Shown here: positions 1,910 to 20,494 of the stretch, piece after piece
How the letters are laid out: every line of letters begins with the position of its first letter
Position numbering within the stretch: the stretch's first letter is position 1
NCBI GenBank assembly: GCA_027327085.1
Contig: DAHWAT010000001.1
Span: 3,867 to 67,866 of the forward strand
Direction: 5' to 3'
DNA: 64,000 nt
Source: Candidatus Saccharimonadota bacterium
GTDB taxonomy: Bacteria; Patescibacteriota; Saccharimonadia; Saccharimonadales; UBA4665
The notes under the pieces: generated by a model
The model's database searches: none
The model's input: only the letters and a program-made list of their open reading frames with translations
What the model was told of the DNA's origin: nothing
Position numbers and translations under genes: made by a program

Positions 1910-4054
1910 CTATATTTGGTCAATCTTTTCAATTTGTGCAAAGCCTAAATTCAGTTTTTTGGTGCCCTTGCCTTTAAAATAAATTACAGCGTCTTCACCG
2001 TCCAGCTCAACGATAGTACCTATACCAAAAAGTTTATGTCTGATGGCGTCACCGGTAGAAACTTCGGGTAGATAACGTGGCTCATTGGATGAATTGTCCT
2101 TAGCTAAAACCCTAGCCGCTTCTAAATTGGAAGTTGTTTCTTGTGCGCCATCAATTTCTGCTAGAAAACGGCTTGGTGGGTTGTACTGAACTCCACCATA
2201 CAGCATACGGGATTGAGCATGTAATAAATAAAGTTCTTGTCTGGCTCTAGTGATTCCTACATAAGCTAGGCGTCTTTCTTCCTCCATCTCAGAGTTATCG
2301 TAAAAACTGCGTGAATGTGGCAAAATTGATTCTTCTAGGCCAGGGATGAAAACTACTGGAAATTCTAACCCTTTAGCCGAATGAAGGGTCATAAGTGTGA
2401 CACTATTAGAGTTATTGTCTAGACTATCGACATCGCTGATGAGAGAGACCTCTTCAAGAAAACCGCTTAGCCCAACCTCGTTATATTCTTGGGCTACACT
2501 TAATAATTCTTTAACATTTTCGGCCCTTGATTCACCTTGGGGGGTGCCATCGTTTAATAAATTAATGTAATCTAATCTTTTTAATAGAGCTTCAATCAGA
2601 CCGCTAACACTGACTTCGTCGCTCATTTTGCGGCATGAAACTAGGATATCGTTGAGCTCAAGTAAGCCATTCTTAGCTTTGCTTGTTAAATTTAAGCAAG
2701 CTTCAACTTGGCTTAGGGCTGCTGCTAGGCTTAAATTGTTTTGATTTTTCCAGTCAAAAAAATTAGCTAAACTTTTTAAACCTATGCCACGGCTGGGGAC
2801 ATTCACCACACGGTTAAAACTAACTTCATCGTTAGGCTGATAAATTAGACGCAAGTAGGCCATTACATCTTTGATCTCTTTACGGTCATAAAACCTAACC
2901 CCTCCGATAACTCTATAAGGTAAATTATGTCTGATTAATGATTCTTCAATGGTTCTTGATTGGGCGTTGGTTCTGTATAAGACTGCAAAGTCTTTGTATC
3001 GCCTGAGGCCACTATCTATACCAAGCTTAATCCGTCTTGTTATGGCTTCGGCTTCTTCTCTTTCAGAACTACTAGCCAGTATTTGAACTGGCAGGCCTAA
3101 AGCCTCCGCCGTCCACAGCTTTTTATCTGAACGCTGGGTATTGTTTAAGATTAAAGAGTTAGCAGCCGTGAGGATTGCTCCGCTAGAGCGGTAGTTTTGT
3201 TCCAATTTTATGACTGTGGCGTTTTTATAGTCTGATTCAAATTTTAGAATGTTTCTAAAGTCAGCTCCTCGCCAGCCATAAATACTTTGAGCGTCATCCC
3301 CACAAACTGCGATATTGTTGGTTTTAGGGTTAGTCAGTAGCTTGACTAACTTATATTGAGCGGCGTTGGTGTCTTGGTACTCATCAATAATCACGTATTT
3401 AAATTGATTCTGCCATTTGCGTCTAACGTCCTGATTAATTTCTAGTAGCCTTACGGTCTTGTTGATTAAATCGTCAAAGTCTAAGGCGTTGTTAGTTTTA
3501 AGAGTTGTTTCATAAACAGGGTAAACTTTAGCAGCCGTGTCTTCTGCCGGTGAACTACTAACTGCGCTATAGTCATCTGGGCTTAAAAGTTCATTCTTAG
3601 CATTACTTATCAGGCTAGAAATAAGTCTAGGCGGAAAGGTTTTCTCATCAATCGATAATTTTTTTATAACTTGTTTAATAGCGGCCAGACGGTCGCTTTC
3701 GTCAAAAATGACAAAGTTTCTAGGAACATTGACGTATTCTGCATCAATTCTTAATAACCGGACACAAATGCCGTGGAAAGTACCCATGTAGGGCATGAAG
3801 CCACGGTTATTGGGTGCTTGATTTAATAATTTGGCAATGCGACTACGCATCTCTTGGGCAGCTTTATTGGTAAAAGTTACCGCTAGTATTTGCTCGCTAT
3901 TAGCTTTATGCGTAGTTAGTATATAGGCAATACGGTGGGTTAGTGTTTTGGTCTTACCGCTACCGGCACCGGCTAGTATTAAAAGAGGACCTTCAGTGGT
4001 TTCGGCGGCCTTTTTTTGCTCTGGATTTAAACCCTTGAGAATGTCTTCATGCAC
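1910..4054 (-). CDS. pcrA: ATP-dependent DNA helicase PcrA/UvrD (SF1)
   Basis: Walker A GAGSGKTKTLTHRIAY, plus DEYQDTN, QNYRS, TLHSAKGLEFP and YVGITRA helicase motifs. Confidence 0.9.
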   Translation of the reverse strand: MHEDILKGLNPEQKKAAETTEGPLLILAGAGSGKTKTLTHRIAYILTTHKANSEQILAVTFTNKAAQEMRSRIAKLLNQAPNNRGFMPYMGTFHGICVRLLRIDAEYVNVPRNFVIFDESDRLAAIKQVIKKLSIDEKTFPPRLISSLISNAKNELLSPDDYSAVSSSPAEDTAAKVYPVYETTLKTNNALDFDDLINKTVRLLEINQDVRRKWQNQFKYVIIDEYQDTNAAQYKLVKLLTNPKTNNIAVCGDDAQSIYGWRGADFRNILKFESDYKNATVIKLEQNYRSSGAILTAANSLILNNTQRSDKKLWTAEALGLPVQILASSSEREEAEAITRRIKLGIDSGLRRYKDFAVLYRTNAQSRTIEESLIRHNLPYRVIGGVRFYDRKEIKDVMAYLRLIYQPNDEVSFNRVVNVPSRGIGLKSLANFFDWKNQNNLSLAAALSQVEACLNLTSKAKNGLLELNDILVSCRKMSDEVSVSGLIEALLKRLDYINLLNDGTPQGESRAENVKELLSVAQEYNEVGLSGFLEEVSLISDVDSLDNNSNSVTLMTLHSAKGLEFPVVFIPGLEESILPHSRSFYDNSEMEEERRLAYVGITRARQELYLLHAQSRMLYGGVQYNPPSRFLAEIDGAQETTSNLEAARVLAKDNSSNEPRYLPEVSTGDAIRHKLFGIGTIVELDGEDAVIYFKGKGTKKLNLGFAQIEKIDQI

Positions 4055-6216: not shown

Positions 6217-6570
6217 TTAAGAGCTCTTTTGTCTTAATTTTCTTAAACTGAATAAGTGATAACTAATGCCGGATATGATACTTACGACAGTAAACAGTCC
6301 GACAACATCACCTGGGCCGGTATTGGTTAGGCTGGTAGTGGAGCTGGAGGCTGAATTTGGTTGACTAGGGGGTTGCGTCGTATCTGCTTGAGTATTAGAA
6401 CTACCCGATGGCCTAGGAACAACTTTAGATTGCGCTACCTTTGGATGAACGCTTGAAGGTTGTTTTGGTTTAGTAGAAGACGAATTAAAGGCCAGATATA
6501 TAACAACTACCAGAGCGATGATAACAATTGCGTAGACTCCGTAAATAATTTGTTTTGGGTACTTTGCCAT
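6217..6570 (-). CDS. small S/T/P-rich surface protein with LTNTGPG sortase-like sorting signal
   Basis: N-terminal TM anchor and a low-complexity S/T/P/Q-rich middle. The C-terminus is LTNTGPG + hydrophobic helix + RKLRQKSS basic tail. Confidence 0.6.
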   Translation of the reverse strand: MAKYPKQIIYGVYAIVIIALVVVIYLAFNSSSTKPKQPSSVHPKVAQSKVVPRPSGSSNTQADTTQPPSQPNSASSSTTSLTNTGPGDVVGLFTVVSIISGISYHLFSLRKLRQKSS

Positions 6571-6803
6571 AATTAAATCCCTTTTACTTAATTTGACTAT
6601 ACCACAAATGAATTATAAAAGCAGGACTCAATCAACTAATACAGAACAAGTAGTCTGTAGAAAAATAAATGGGTTGTAAAAAATTTCTGGTTGGTTTCGC
6701 CCTGCCATCCATTCATTTAAGATGAGCTGTAAACAGTTTGAGCTTGAGATAGGCAAGTTTATTTAAAAAATAGAGGCAAATCTTACGATCTTATTAACCC
6801 AGG

Positions 6804-6820
6804 GTACGCTCGTAACGTAC
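6804..6820. promoter_or_regulatory. GTAC-type palindrome upstream of first yefM-like gene (candidate operator)
   Basis: GTACG-CTCGTAA-CGTAC lies 37 nt upstream of the ATG at 6857. E. coli YefM operators are built on TGTACA cores. Confidence 0.4.
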
Positions 6821-6856
6821 CAATATATTGTAATTAAAATTTCTTAGGAGATCACT

Positions 6857-7111
6857 ATGACTACGAAAACAATTGATGCCAGTACCATGCGCAAGAATCA
6901 GTCTGAAGTACTTGATTCTGTTCGCGATGATAAAGATATTATTCTAGTGAGAAGACACGGCCATGTAGAATCCGCTTTAGTAGATATCGATACACTTGAA
7001 GACCTGCTTGCAGTACAAGACCCTAAGTACTTAAAGAGTATTGCTGAGGCACGTTCCAGCAAGGAATGGTATTCTCCAGAAGAAGTCTTTGGTGACATTT
7101 GGACTGATTAA
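6857..7111 (+). CDS. Phd/YefM-family antitoxin (copy 1)
   Basis: 84 aa. It has the N-terminal T-I-x-A-S-x-x-R-x-N pattern, an LVDIDTLEDLL segment and an acidic C-terminus. A RelE-like ORF follows 2 nt later. Confidence 0.8.
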   Translation: MTTKTIDASTMRKNQSEVLDSVRDDKDIILVRRHGHVESALVDIDTLEDLLAVQDPKYLKSIAEARSSKEWYSPEEVFGDIWTD

Positions 7112-7113
7112 AA

Positions 7114-7374
7114 ATGCCTTATAGGTTGAAAATTGAAAGTCTAGCAAAGAAAGACATCAAGTCATTAGAGTTAACTGTTCAGAAACGTATTGTTAAGAAG
7201 CTAAAGTTTTTCTTAGAAAAACCCGACCCACTAATGTATGCAAAGAAGCTTGTTGACAGTTCAGGTGGAGATTACAGGTGGCGTATCAGTAACTATCGAT
7301 TAATTTTCGATTTAAAGGACTATGAAATATTGTTGCTACGGGTTCAGCATAGAAAAGATGTTTACAAAAAATAA
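7114..7374 (+). CDS. RelE/ParE-superfamily toxin (copy 1)
   Basis: 86 aa. The YRWRISNYRLIFDL...ILLLRVQHRKDVY pattern is typical of RelE/StbE/ParE toxins. Confidence 0.8.
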   Translation: MPYRLKIESLAKKDIKSLELTVQKRIVKKLKFFLEKPDPLMYAKKLVDSSGGDYRWRISNYRLIFDLKDYEILLLRVQHRKDVYKK

Positions 7375-7389
7375 TCTTTAGACTTTACA

Positions 7390-7418
7390 CTAATTTGTAA
7401 ATGGTGAACCACACGAGA
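7390..7418. repeat. Copy of the tRNA-Glu 3' end plus flank (att-like junction)
   Basis: CTAATTTGTAAATGGTGAACCACACGAGA aligns with 8083-8111 CTAATTTGTCAATGGTGACCTCACGGAGA. The latter is 12 nt of flank plus the last 17 nt of tRNA-Glu, read on the + strand. Confidence 0.7.
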
Positions 7419-7518
7419 TTTTCCTGGAACTCTGTTCTCTCTTCCCTTCTTAGCTTCAATGATAAGCTCATAGCGCTGGAAGGTGGCTAATTAATATTGA
7501 TTTAAGTACATCCATAAT

Positions 7519-7535
7519 GTACAATTAAATTGTAC
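7519..7535. promoter_or_regulatory. Perfect palindrome GTACAAT-TAA-ATTGTAC abutting a TATAAT box (operator/promoter of second yefM-like gene)
   Basis: 7-bp perfect arms at 7519-7535, with a further GTACA at 7506-7510. TATAAT is at 7536-7541, a GGAG RBS follows, and the ATG is at 7558. Confidence 0.55.
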
Positions 7536-7557
7536 TATAATATATTAGGAGAAAACT

Positions 7558-7800
7558 ATGGGCACCACAACTATTCCGGCATCAGATCTAAGAGCAAACT
7601 TAGCTGAGACTCTAGATGCAGTTAGTTTAGACAATATCATTGTCGTAACTCGTCGAGGGAAAAAAGAAAGAGCCATTATAGACCTAGATCAACTAGAGGA
7701 TCTATTGGCTGCCAGTGATCCTGCTTATCTAGCTAAAATCAAAGAAGCTAGAGAAAGTAAGGAATACTTAAGCCATGAGGATGTATTTAGGGATCTTTAA
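7558..7800 (+). CDS. Phd/YefM-family antitoxin (copy 2)
   Basis: 80 aa and collinear with copy 1 (IIDLDQLEDLLAASDPAYL vs LVDIDTLEDLLAVQDPKYL). Confidence 0.8.
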   Translation: MGTTTIPASDLRANLAETLDAVSLDNIIVVTRRGKKERAIIDLDQLEDLLAASDPAYLAKIKEARESKEYLSHEDVFRDL

Positions 7801-7802
7801 AG

Positions 7803-8066
7803 ATGTCAAAATATACTCTGGTATACAAAAAGCCAGCAGCTAAAGAAATTAGCAAATTGCCAGACCATATAAAAAAACGCCTGAAAGCTAAGTTAGAGTG
7901 GTTTATAAGCCAGGATAAGCCTTTAGAATTTGCGCAGCTGCTCACTAAACCTGCTGATGGGCAGTACAGGTTTAGAATAGGCAATTACAGATTACTTTTT
8001 GACGTTGAGGATAATAAGATAGTGGTTCTGCACATTCAGCATCGAAGAGAAGTTTATAGACGATAA
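7803..8066 (+). CDS. RelE/ParE-superfamily toxin (copy 2)
   Basis: 87 aa. YRFRIGNYRLLFDV...VVLHIQHRREVY is collinear with copy 1. Confidence 0.8.
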   Translation: MSKYTLVYKKPAAKEISKLPDHIKKRLKAKLEWFISQDKPLEFAQLLTKPADGQYRFRIGNYRLLFDVEDNKIVVLHIQHRREVYRR

Positions 8067-8094
8067 TTCATATAATATTATCCTAATTTGTCAA

Positions 8095-8169
8095 TGGTGA
8101 CCTCACGGAGAATCGAACTCCGATTGCCAGGATGAAAACCTGGTGTCCTAGCCGTTAGACGATGAGGCC
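8095..8169 (-). tRNA. tRNA-Glu (anticodon UUC), CCA encoded
   Basis: The reverse complement folds as GGCCTCA/TGAGGTC acceptor, 3-bp GTC/GAC D stem, CCAGG-TTTTCAT-CCTGG anticodon arm and CGGAG-TTCGATT-CTCCG T arm, then A-CCA. Confidence 0.9.
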
Positions 8170-19843: not shown

Positions 19844-19873
19844 AGTTGCGATAGCGTGCACGGTGGCCCTCCA
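19844..19873 (+). repeat. cassette-end repeat R1 (ends in the last 10 nt of tRNA-Lys)
   Basis: AGTTGCGATAGCGTGCACGGTGGCCCTCCA. TGGCCCTCCA is identical to tRNA-Lys 19135-19144. Confidence 0.8.
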
Positions 19874-20464: not shown

Positions 20465-20494
20465 AGTTGCGATAGCATCTACGATGGCCCTCCA
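20465..20494 (+). repeat. cassette-end repeat R2
   Basis: AGTTGCGATAGCATCTACGATGGCCCTCCA is 26/30 identical to R1. It has the same 10-nt tRNA-Lys terminus. Confidence 0.8.

Follow-up and report, generated by a model that had tools for sequence, protein, structure and literature searches.

The 3′ end of a tRNA-Glu(UUC) gene in a Candidatus Saccharimonadota bacterium (GenBank assembly GCA_027327085.1, contig DAHWAT010000001.1) adjoins two toxin-antitoxin (TA) cassettes, and between them lies a copy of the junction that the tRNA forms with its flank. How did two cassettes come to be stacked at a single tRNA gene, and what does the copy between them record? The locus was analyzed within a window of 64,000 nt (positions 3,867 to 67,866 of the forward strand), and all coordinates below are those of the window. 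The array at tRNA-Glu(UUC) and its surroundings comprise the following features:

6217-6570, minus strand: p117, a conserved gene for a membrane-like protein of 117 aa, which bounds the array distally, with pgk further out
6624-8094: strain-variable cassette slot, occupied in the window by cassette 1 and cassette 2
6624-7401, plus strand: cassette 1 (distal), with antitoxin at 6857-7111 and toxin at 7114-7374
6803-6821, plus strand: palindrome GGTACG-N7-CGTACC, the operator-like element of cassette 1, whose GTAC cores are spaced by 13 nt
7390-7418: inner junction, a 12-nt flank (7390-7401) plus the tRNA-end-like TGGTGAACCACACGAGA (7402-7418)
7402-8094, plus strand: cassette 2 (tRNA-adjoining), with antitoxin at 7558-7800 and toxin at 7803-8066
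7506-7541, plus strand: putative operator/promoter of cassette 2, with GTAC cores at 7506, 7519 and 7532, spaced by 13 nt
7519-7535: perfect palindrome of cassette 2, GTACAAT-TAA-ATTGTAC (GTACAATTAAATTGTAC)
7536-7541: TATAAT, directly after the cassette 2 palindrome
8095-8169, minus strand: tRNA-Glu(UUC), called by ARAGORN (ttc), with a gene-encoded CCA; its 3′ terminus, ...GAGGTCACCA, is the anchor of the array and the join point

Read in the sense of the tRNA, cassette 1 starts with TTTACAAATTAG and cassette 2 with TTGACAAATTAG (8094-8083; the start is also given as TTGACAAATTAGG), while the distal end of cassette 2 reads ...GTGTGGTTCACCA. Both TA operons are antisense relative to tRNA-Glu, and the flank at 7390-7401 consists of the first bases of cassette 1 in the tRNA sense.

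The open reading frames of cassette 1 encode an antitoxin of 84 aa and a toxin of 86 aa, and those of cassette 2 an antitoxin of 80 aa and a toxin of 87 aa, with a gap of 2 nt between antitoxin and toxin in each cassette. Both antitoxins contain the Phd/YefM domain that is characteristic of type II TA systems (PF02604; 30.9 and 40.0 bits; cut-off, 29.8), and TIGR01552 matches that of cassette 2 only. Directly downstream in the same operon, both toxins match the ParE toxin family of the ParE/RelE fold (PF05016; 30.9 and 42.4 bits; cut-off, 23). The reading frames and domain matches thus place the junction copy between two antitoxin/toxin pairs, as had been described in the original prediction. 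Its estimate that the proteins of the two pairs are 35-45% identical held for the toxins (40%; 34/84) but was too low for the antitoxins (54%; 44/81). A search of the contigs of this genome with the cassette 2 toxin returned unrelated distant homologues only. The pairs would serve as autoregulated addiction or defence modules that stabilize the array.

A GTAC-core palindrome had been described for each cassette, and both were confirmed, at 6803-6821 and at 7519-7535, the latter followed by TATAAT. The palindromes overlap promoter-like hexamers, and in cassette 2 a promoter scan returned TTGATT-17-TACAAT at 7497-7525. YefM systems have paired TGTACA motifs 12 bp apart (PMC1802561). The proposed match to operators of this type is supported by an approximately 9-fold enrichment of GTAC upstream of 19 orthologous antitoxin genes, at a spacing of 13 or 26 nt, and the palindromes are regarded here as putative operators. 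As in the E. coli YefM system (PMC1802561), a Phd/YefM-fold antitoxin comes first and a RelE/ParE-superfamily toxin second after a gap of 2 nt, and repeated (T)GTAC(A) cores lie over the promoter, no more than 80 nt from the start codon. Unlike that system, the cores at this locus are spaced by 13 nt rather than 12 bp, and the toxins, whose function is putative, score as ParE/RelE (PF05016) and not as YoeB.

When further copies of the junction sequence were sought, the 18-mer CTAATTTGTNAATGGTGA was found solely at 7390-7407 and 8083-8100, and 0.01 matches to it would be expected by chance with two mismatches allowed. Alignment confirmed the longer copy at 7390-7418, in which 29 nt correspond to the last 17 nt of the tRNA plus 12 nt of its flank, with approximately 26 matches and two 1-nt indels. 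The flank portion matches at 11 of its 12 positions. In the tRNA portion, TGGTGAACCACAC-GAGA aligns with TGGTG-ACCTCACGGAGA; this tRNA-like part of the inner copy has diverged (15/17 aligned, 2 indels), is marginal alone (p ~0.06) and by itself constitutes weak evidence. Over their full length the two units align collinearly, at a period of 693-701 nt. The junction had been claimed to be far better conserved than the genes around it. It is indeed the best 30-column window of the full unit alignment (0.77-0.80), ahead of the promoter/RBS region (0.70-0.73) and of coding sequence (0.40-0.67), but the toxin 3′ end also reaches 0.70-0.73, and the excess conservation at the junction is real but modest. 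No copy of the tRNA body past the first 17 nt was detected in 7419-7510 (p = 0.6), which rules out a decayed whole tRNA in that interval. Classical att logic would call for a core copy at the distal boundary (6623/6624) as well, but none was detected, and neither the tRNA end nor the site was found a third time at the distal end of cassette 1 (6600-6810; p = 0.93 and 1.0). Cassette 2 lies between the tRNA end and the inner copy; cassette 1 lacks a detectable distal copy.

Collinear units that align end to end, with the inner copy positioned where a duplicated tRNA end would be, would be expected if a TA cassette and the 3′ part of tRNA-Glu had been doubled in place long ago, after which the inner tRNA decayed and the two pairs diverged. 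A phylogenetic tree of concatenated antitoxin and toxin sequences, in which all rows other than the two cassettes of the window are from other genera, gave a different picture of their ancestry. Cassette 1 was placed in a clade supported at 96/96 with L064, L068 and L070, and cassette 2 in a clade of 15 rows supported at 100/99. Each cassette shares 69-82% amino-acid identity with its orthologues in other genera, versus 40-54% with its neighbor, and the two fall in separate starred clades. They are not each other's closest relatives, as the products of a local tandem duplication would be; cassettes 1 and 2 are of separate ancestry and are not recent tandem duplicates. The tree largely refutes tandem duplication, which we regard as very improbable. 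Also against it are the lack of a copy of the tRNA body past 17 nt, the 26/29 matches at a non-coding junction, which are anomalous given the age implied by the proteins, and the finding, described below, of a near-identical cassette 1 proximal end joined to an unrelated cassette instead of to cassette 2.

The orthologues of the two cassettes often occur singly at the 3′ ends of tRNA-Glu, tRNA-Gln or tRNA-Arg, or at copies of these ends. L042 (cassette 2 type) and L068 (cassette 1 type) adjoin tRNA-Glu(CTC), L053 and L091 adjoin tRNA-Gln, and L063 and L117 adjoin tRNA-Arg, while copies of the tRNA-Gln end (TGGCTG...) follow L092, L094, L095, L097, L099, L100, L103 and L104. TGGTGA... copies flank L043, L044 and L046; L042-L044 have TGGTGA... 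on both sides, and L042 has a clean 30-nt tRNA-end repeat approximately 245 nt upstream of its antitoxin gene.

Cassette counts were compared on metagenome contigs of the same species, because the species-representative relatives all belong to other genera and none has TA pairs within 1.5 kb of tRNA-Glu(UUC). Contigs encoding an identical p117 protein carry different arrays. When relatives were checked for 0, 1 or 2 cassettes, variant contigs were found in which both cassettes (6624-8094) are replaced by an unrelated insert of 601 nt, termed cassette X; to its left, through 6623, they share 99.5-99.6% identity with the window, and the match returns at 8095, the last base of the tRNA. Both haplotypes are present within the same samples, and the strain-level replacement has exact boundaries. 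Samples in which several haplotypes coexist are JGI 3300033990, ERZ27237009, ERZ27236945, ERZ27236973, SRR13188939 and SRR13221994. In some contigs the left flank matches the window at only 94.7% and the slot block at 100%; the differences end at 6438. One homologous-recombination breakpoint lies within p117 (6438/6439) and the other at or beyond the tRNA. The exchanges actually demonstrated are homologous recombination, since their breakpoints lie in flanking genes.

One join point has been reused by different partners. Cassette X directly follows the tRNA itself in L079, and in L084, L086 and L087 it follows the site of an Mrr-nuclease cassette (...TTGGGTCACCA). In L088 and L089, the same Mrr cassette site is followed by a near-identical cassette 1 start, and the join again falls on the same nucleotide behind ...CACCA. 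Of this cassette 1 copy, 22-112 tRNA-proximal nt are visible, with 3 differences in approximately 112 nt, and it is the sole exception in the species to cassettes 1 and 2 being seen together. With three partners, namely the tRNA, cassette 2 at its distal arm and the Mrr cassette site, the junction to a cassette falls exactly after CACCA. The separate clades with other-genus orthologues, the single orthologues at tRNA-Glu, tRNA-Gln and tRNA-Arg ends, the strain variants that replace exactly 6624-8094, and a near-identical cassette 1 proximal end with a different upstream partner at the same join nucleotide all favor the view, put forward in the original prediction, that the junction is a recombination-derived site rather than the trace of a simple old tandem duplication.

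The 12-nt flank belongs to this cassette family in particular and not to a general site, because cassette X starts with GAAGCACTG after CCA. The differing start of cassette X also argues against the flank and tRNA end being kept for a regulatory function in both operons instead of for recombination, whether as an antisense promoter (TTGACA/TTTACA after CCA) or as an element governing the 3′ end or stability of the toxin mRNA. On the tRNA strand the flank opens with a perfect -35-like hexamer (TTGACA at 8094-8089, TTTACA at 7401-7396), and a related TTTGTCAA lies near the junction of L093, a distant cassette 1 type copy, as a regulatory element might. A consensus scan, however, predicted neither a minus-strand promoter nor a terminator at either 12-nt flank, and both candidates were rejected; most orthologues, moreover, have only 6-10 unrelated nt between the stop codon and TGGTGA. 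We regard the regulatory explanation as very improbable.

The arrangement recurs at other tRNA genes. In the same genome, 10 tRNA-tail copies lie downstream of tRNA-Lys, Met, Asp, Gln, Leu and Glu, and none lies upstream; arrays at tRNA-Glu(CTC) are present on contigs C37 and C41. Among relatives, tRNA-end repeats of 17-20 nt were found at 5 of 29 tRNA-Glu loci, all on the 3′ side, and L003 retains the synteny of pgk, other cargo, tRNA-Glu and DUF87. At the tRNA-Glu(CTC) arrays, a site of approximately 75 nt ending in GGGTCACCA is kept across genera between unrelated cargo. The inner site of the window was not detected as a member of this site family by an nhmmer profile that does find C37 and C41. 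A common mechanism that loads TA modules onto tRNA 3′ ends had been suggested; the four findings that favor a recombination-derived site also support a common mechanism at these ends, but it is not specific to TA modules, because other cargo occupies the same slot.

In light of these data, the locus is probably a small cassette array at the 3′ end of tRNA-Glu(UUC), built by joining after the terminal (G)GTCACCA and then exchanged between strains. Each cassette would form a self-contained operon of the Phd/YefM-ParE/RelE type, equipped with a promoter and a GTAC-repeat operator of its own, and the two would have been acquired separately. Incoming DNA would be joined right after the terminal ...(G)GTCACCA of the tRNA and would displace older cassettes outward, so that cassette 2 would be the newer and cassette 1 the older of the pair. 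The 29-nt inner copy would then be a junction remnant, made up of a tRNA-end-like core and the 12 nt with which cassette 1 begins; cassette 2 would begin with 12 homologous nt, because the two cassettes belong to related families with a shared proximal end. Homologous recombination in the conserved flanks, at p117/pgk and at the tRNA, would subsequently swap whole arrays between strains.

The joining step is hypothesized to be a site-specific recombination, catalyzed in trans, that takes place inside the terminal 5-8 nt of the tRNA gene. Because no recombinase is adjacent, we infer this step rather than observe it: a tblastn search with the Xer-like protein of this genome found no recombinase adjoining the array or any of the approximately 80 fetched loci. 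PF00589 has one match in the genome, on contig C48, and this Xer-like protein scores far below integron-integrase cut-offs (133 vs 265). The Xer-like tyrosine recombinase and one large serine recombinase, which the genome also encodes (contig C23), are candidates for the trans-acting enzyme. A search of the genome with a dif-like core pattern, as a test of Xer involvement, yielded matches dominated by noise and identified no dif-like site at the junctions.

The same lack of a nearby integrase would be expected if no dedicated site-specific system existed and the region were instead a tRNA-adjacent hotspot, where homologous recombination through the flanks swaps segments after DNA uptake and microhomology joins at the GC-rich tRNA end produce the copies. 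The mosaic breakpoints in p117 (6438/6439) and at or beyond the tRNA are of this kind, as are the breakpoint of the L088 inversion, which shares only microhomology, and the distal boundary without a core copy. Such a hotspot fits poorly with three partners joined at the exact base after CACCA and with tRNA-end copies downstream of at least five tRNAs in the genome and never upstream. Nor does it fit with the conservation of the approximately 75-nt site across genera between unrelated cargo, which points to selection on a site. We judge an explanation by hotspot alone unlikely.

In its overall form the locus may be described as tandem tRNA-targeted integration resembling an integron. Like the tRNA genomic islands, or tycheposons, of Prochlorococcus (bioRxiv 10.1101/2020.12.28.424599), it has a tRNA gene as its target, newcomers that displace older units and a strain-variable content. 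It differs from them in that its units are 0.6-0.8 kb without integrase, excisionase or replication genes, share approximately 5-17 nt of tRNA-like sequence and are joined at the last bases (CCA), and in that an integrase adjoins no locus examined; a classical tRNA-targeting element would have an integrase inside the element beside the tRNA. With chromosomal (sedentary) integrons it shares arrays of small cassettes, a boundary site for each, TA cassettes with their own promoters, strain-variable content, and the same cassette with different neighbors at a fixed point. In contrast to integrons, which are defined by an IntI with adjacent attI and Pc, the locus has none of the three; its anchor is the tRNA 3′ end, and its boundary is derived from the tRNA end. 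The dif modules of Acinetobacter plasmids (PMC6449649) are likewise small modules of one to a few genes, often TA, that carry no recombinase themselves and whose movement is attributed to host Xer enzymes, and the sole tyrosine recombinase in the present genome is Xer-like. Those modules, however, are plasmid-borne and flanked by inverted 28-nt XerC/XerD sites (PMC6449649).

More tentatively, the locus could belong to an integrase-less, integron-like, tRNA-anchored cassette system in small-genome bacteria, a broader reading that we hold to be possible. At several tRNA genes, a recombinase acting in trans, perhaps the housekeeping Xer-like enzyme or a large serine recombinase, would attach short self-expressed cassettes (TA pairs, nucleases and further defence-type genes) precisely behind the CCA. 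Cassette-end sites would form a separate family for each tRNA, and the tRNA-Glu(UUC) stack in the window would be one small array of the system. Nothing relevant was found in the literature on a tRNA-anchored cassette system in Saccharibacteria, which is weak evidence of absence.

Bacteria of this kind, with very small genomes, are thought to be poor in mobile elements, and their strains still differ in their sets of defence-type and TA genes. The locus shows an entry point for such genes, a fixed join at the last bases of a tRNA gene, with cassettes reused in different orders and whole arrays swapped between strains that have approximately 5% flank divergence. For studies of specificity it also provides naturally paired, diverged operators and antitoxins of the YefM type. 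If a trans-acting recombinase is responsible, the system would represent a compact means of gene capture that differs from integrons, and possibly a tool for site-specific insertion in genetically intractable organisms.

Two toxin-antitoxin (TA) gene pairs lie on the 3′ side of a tRNA-Glu gene called by ARAGORN, and each is preceded by an operator-like palindrome:

8095-8169, minus strand: tRNA-Glu(ttc), with the CCA encoded in the gene
7558-7800 with 7803-8066, plus strand: gene pair of cassette 2 (tRNA-proximal)
7519-7535: palindrome of cassette 2, GTACAAT-TAA-ATTGTAC, abutting TATAAT
6857-7111 with 7114-7374, plus strand: gene pair of cassette 1 (distal)
6803-6821: palindrome of cassette 1, GGTACG-N7-CGTACC

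The first gene in each pair matched the Phd/YefM antitoxin family above the curated Pfam cut-off, and the second matched the ParE toxin of the ParE/RelE superfamily. The toxins of the two cassettes are 40% identical, within the 35-45% originally predicted by eye for the proteins of both pairs; the antitoxins, at 54%, are somewhat more similar than that. The proposal that the GTAC palindromes are YefM-type operators was strengthened by 19 orthologous upstream regions, which have a GTAC frequency of 2.4 per 75 nt (background 0.26) with spacings of 13 or 26 nt. YefM of E. coli binds paired, promoter-overlapping TGTACA motifs located 12 bp apart (PMC1802561). On this comparative evidence, the palindromes are well supported as putative operators.

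The cassette-2 toxin was searched against 300 genomes of the same family, yielding many homologous pairs, and a maximum-likelihood tree was constructed from the concatenated antitoxin and toxin. Cassette 1 groups with L064, L068 and L070 (support 96/96) and cassette 2 with 14 other rows (support 100/99), all three and all 14 coming from other genera. Each cassette shares 69-82% identity with its orthologues, compared with only 40-54% with its neighbor. Local duplication of the cassettes was therefore rejected, as the original prediction had argued. The orthologues bear the same relation to tRNA ends as the cassettes of the window (L-numbers denote loci of other genomes or metagenome contigs, except L130 below, which is on contig C23 of this genome):

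L042 (cassette-2 type) and L068 (cassette-1 type): stop 6-10 nt short of the tRNA-Glu(CTC) 3′ end; L042 also has a 30-nt direct repeat of this tRNA end ~245 nt upstream of the antitoxin gene
L043, L044, L046: bounded by TGGTGA... copies, without a tRNA
L053: adjoins tRNA-Gln
L063: adjoins tRNA-Arg
L091 (metagenome, cassette-1 type): at tRNA-Gln
L092, L094, L095 (metagenome, cassette-1 type): beside TGGCTGAG... copies of the tRNA-Gln end
L093 (metagenome, cassette-1 type): at tRNA-Glu(CTC); its flank, TTTGTCAATAA|TGGTGACC, is similar to that in the window
L097, L099, L100, L103, L104 (metagenome, cassette-2 type): followed by TGGCTGGG... copies

The copy of the tRNA end and its flank between the two pairs is genuine. 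The 64-kb window has just two occurrences of CTAATTTGTNAATGGTGA, 7390-7407 and 8083-8100 (0.01 expected), and the full repeat can be aligned across 29 nt, with 26 positions matching and two single-base indels. As claimed at the outset, it is better conserved than the surrounding genes, if modestly so: when the two units were aligned end to end and scanned in 30-column windows, the junction was the most conserved stretch (0.77-0.80), followed by the promoter/RBS region (0.70-0.73), with coding sequence at 0.40-0.67 and up to 0.70-0.73 at the toxin 3′ end. Such conservation of non-coding DNA between genes so diverged needs an explanation. Past its first 17 nt, the tRNA body is not significantly similar to 7419-7510 (p = 0.6), and the distal side of cassette 1 yielded no additional tRNA-end copy (p = 0.9). 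The best-supported reading is that the inner 29-nt copy is the junction of the distal arm of cassette 2 with the start of cassette 1. The 12-nt flank would owe its conservation to being the proximal end, homologous between the two related cassettes; it does not belong to a universal site, as an unrelated cassette of other strains, cassette X, has a different start.

Where contigs from other samples encode exactly these toxins, both cassettes are present in unchanged order. Contigs with exactly the same pgk and p117 (a 117-aa membrane-like gene at 6217-6570, minus strand, bounding the array distally) can hold a different insert in place of the two cassettes; these follow the window at 99.5-99.6% identity through base 6623, beyond which all similarity is lost. 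Identity returns in L079 and L080 at exactly base 8095, the last tRNA base, and the unrelated 601-nt segment between the equivalents of 6623 and 8095 is cassette X. Both haplotypes are present in the same samples. Cassette X also occurs away from the tRNA (L076-L078, L084-L087), where it is preceded by the site ...CATGTTTGGTCAACTTGGGTCACCA that closes an Mrr-type nuclease cassette and starts at the same nucleotide as it does behind the tRNA. Behind this Mrr site, L088 and L089 have TTTACAAATTTGTGTAAATTCTAAA..., with which a near-identical copy of cassette 1 begins (3 differences from the window in ~112 nt); in the window, cassette 1 is preceded by ...GTGTGGTTCACCA. Each of these two cassettes thus occurs with two different partners ahead of it, joined in every case immediately after CACCA. 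Because of this, and because the partners share only 5-8 nt, any crossover would lie within the terminal (G)GTCACCA.

Other features of these haplotypes were also observed. By eye, the cassette X frame (L079 2194-2794) is open through the CCA junction with no obvious start codon, and cassette X may be not an intact cassette but a gene fragment truncated at its 5′ end. One metagenome contig has the Mrr cassette and the last 85 nt of a cassette-1-type toxin gene inverted relative to the neighboring 288-aa gene (L088 2281-3072 versus L084 10634-11458), with only microhomology at the L088 breakpoint (AGATTTGAA versus CGATTTAAA). L084 1-11458 (GCA_021829605.1, contig JAKBPJ010000010.1) represents the cassette-X/Mrr haplotype and has defence-type genes beyond the array: a GIY-YIG/DUF4357 protein, a 1350-aa ResIII/Eco57I-like enzyme, a 795-aa DUF87/TrwB-like ATPase, an HTH protein with a 288-aa protein, and Mrr. 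It has no tRNA-Glu within 20 kb, and a further tRNA-like end, ..GGAGTAGGTCGCCA, lies ahead of its Mrr cassette.

Some contigs match the window at only 94.7% in the pgk/p117 flank but at 100% across bases 6624-8094; the flank differences stop at a breakpoint inside p117 (6438/6439). To the left of it, the window agrees with the cassette-X strains (99.5%), and most TA-array strains differ from the window by 5.3%; to the right, the window is 100% identical to most TA-array strains. L034 has the TA array with a right flank of the 94% type. This mosaic indicates that whole arrays moved between lineages by flank recombination. The window's own combination recurs in an independent contig (L038), confirming that it is not an assembly artefact. 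The main rival explanation is that homologous recombination with occasional microhomology joins suffices; the exchange events demonstrated here are homologous, and no core copy was seen at the distal boundary. We consider this rather unlikely, and favor separate acquisition of the cassettes, with joining at the final bases of the tRNA gene.

All 33 tRNAs in the genome were scanned over 6 kb on either side for copies of their last 20 nt including the 3′ end, excluding genuine tRNAs. Ten copies were found downstream and none upstream of any tRNA (C-numbers denote contigs of this genome):

tRNA-Lys: two, window 19864-19873 and 20485-20494
tRNA-Met: two of 20 nt, C32, 1111 and 4044 nt after the tRNA
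tRNA-Asp: three, C47, 560, 1816 and 2961 nt after the tRNA
tRNA-Gln: one, C44, 1391 nt after the tRNA
tRNA-Leu: one
second tRNA-Glu: one

Copies listed at tRNA-Lys, -Asp, -Met and -Gln are the last 9-20 nt of their own tRNA, at spacings of 0.6-3 kb. The units at tRNA-Lys contain a Phd-PIN pair, a HAD phosphatase and a RelB-YafQ pair, and the similar architecture anticipated there is borne out. Among relatives, 17-20-nt tRNA-end repeats occur at 5 of 29 tRNA-Glu loci, always on the 3′ side. L003 keeps the synteny pgk, cargo, tRNA-Glu, DUF87, its cargo being a different 92-aa ORF. At tRNA-Glu in other genera (L007, L008, L009, L010, L012), the tRNA is separated from the first tRNA-end repeat by very short units (146-200 nt); those in L007, L009 and L010 start with ATGAAA, a terminator-like hairpin was seen by eye in all five, and L009 has the unit and repeat twice.

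C37 carries tRNA-Glu(CTC) with two TA cassettes, and C41 begins inside the same tRNA, followed by different cargo. Contigs beginning in or at a tRNA that has a different downstream region on another contig were noted for tRNA-Glu(CTC) (C41/C37), tRNA-Met (C32/C49) and tRNA-Thr (C38/C47), and C6 begins at tRNA-Leu; this suggests assembly forks at tRNA-anchored variable regions. In tRNA-Glu(CTC) arrays of this genome and several genera, a conserved ~75-nt site ending in TAGGGTCACCA separates unrelated cargo (C37 near 413-513 and 1190-1287; C41 816-915 and 1494-1574; L002, L044, L046, L062, L065-L070). Its pattern is ..ATTCCAyCTAATAATTTC..N12..TTATAAAyCGr-N6-TAGGGTCACCA, often with TTACAGATAAG 8 nt further on. 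The 6-7 variable bases ahead of TAGGGTCACCA tend toward complementarity with it, which suggests a possible hairpin or inverted repeat at the site end. The inner site of the window was not detectable as a member of this family, and is therefore not assigned to it.

No recombinase is adjacent to the array. The 82%-complete genome encodes one tyrosine recombinase (C48, 304 aa; top matches XerC, XerD and XerA), which had no tblastn match in any fetched locus, and one large serine recombinase (C23, 496 aa; Resolvase, Recombinase and zinc-ribbon domains). The latter gene (L130 1845-3335, minus strand) is convergent on a tRNA 3′ end, with the end of the contig immediately beyond the recombinase gene. 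This tRNA gene (L130 ~1446-1757) is split by a group I intron (1479-1708; Rfam RF00028, 92.5 bits) and received no ARAGORN call; the ORF just before it resembles smpB by eye. The tRNA and serine recombinase together look like an element integrated at a tRNA end. Either recombinase could act in trans on the cassettes, both being candidates only. A search for dif-like sequences gave matches dominated by noise.

Taken as a whole, the locus is best read as a small array of cassettes at the tRNA-Glu 3′ end. Tycheposons (bioRxiv 10.1101/2020.12.28.424599) are one known example of units that accumulate in tandem at tRNA genes, separated by partial copies of the tRNA. In contrast, the units here are 0.6-0.8 kb, have no recombinase inside or beside them, and are joined at the extreme tRNA 3′ end; the cassettes are also reused in different combinations, a feature in which the array resembles integrons.
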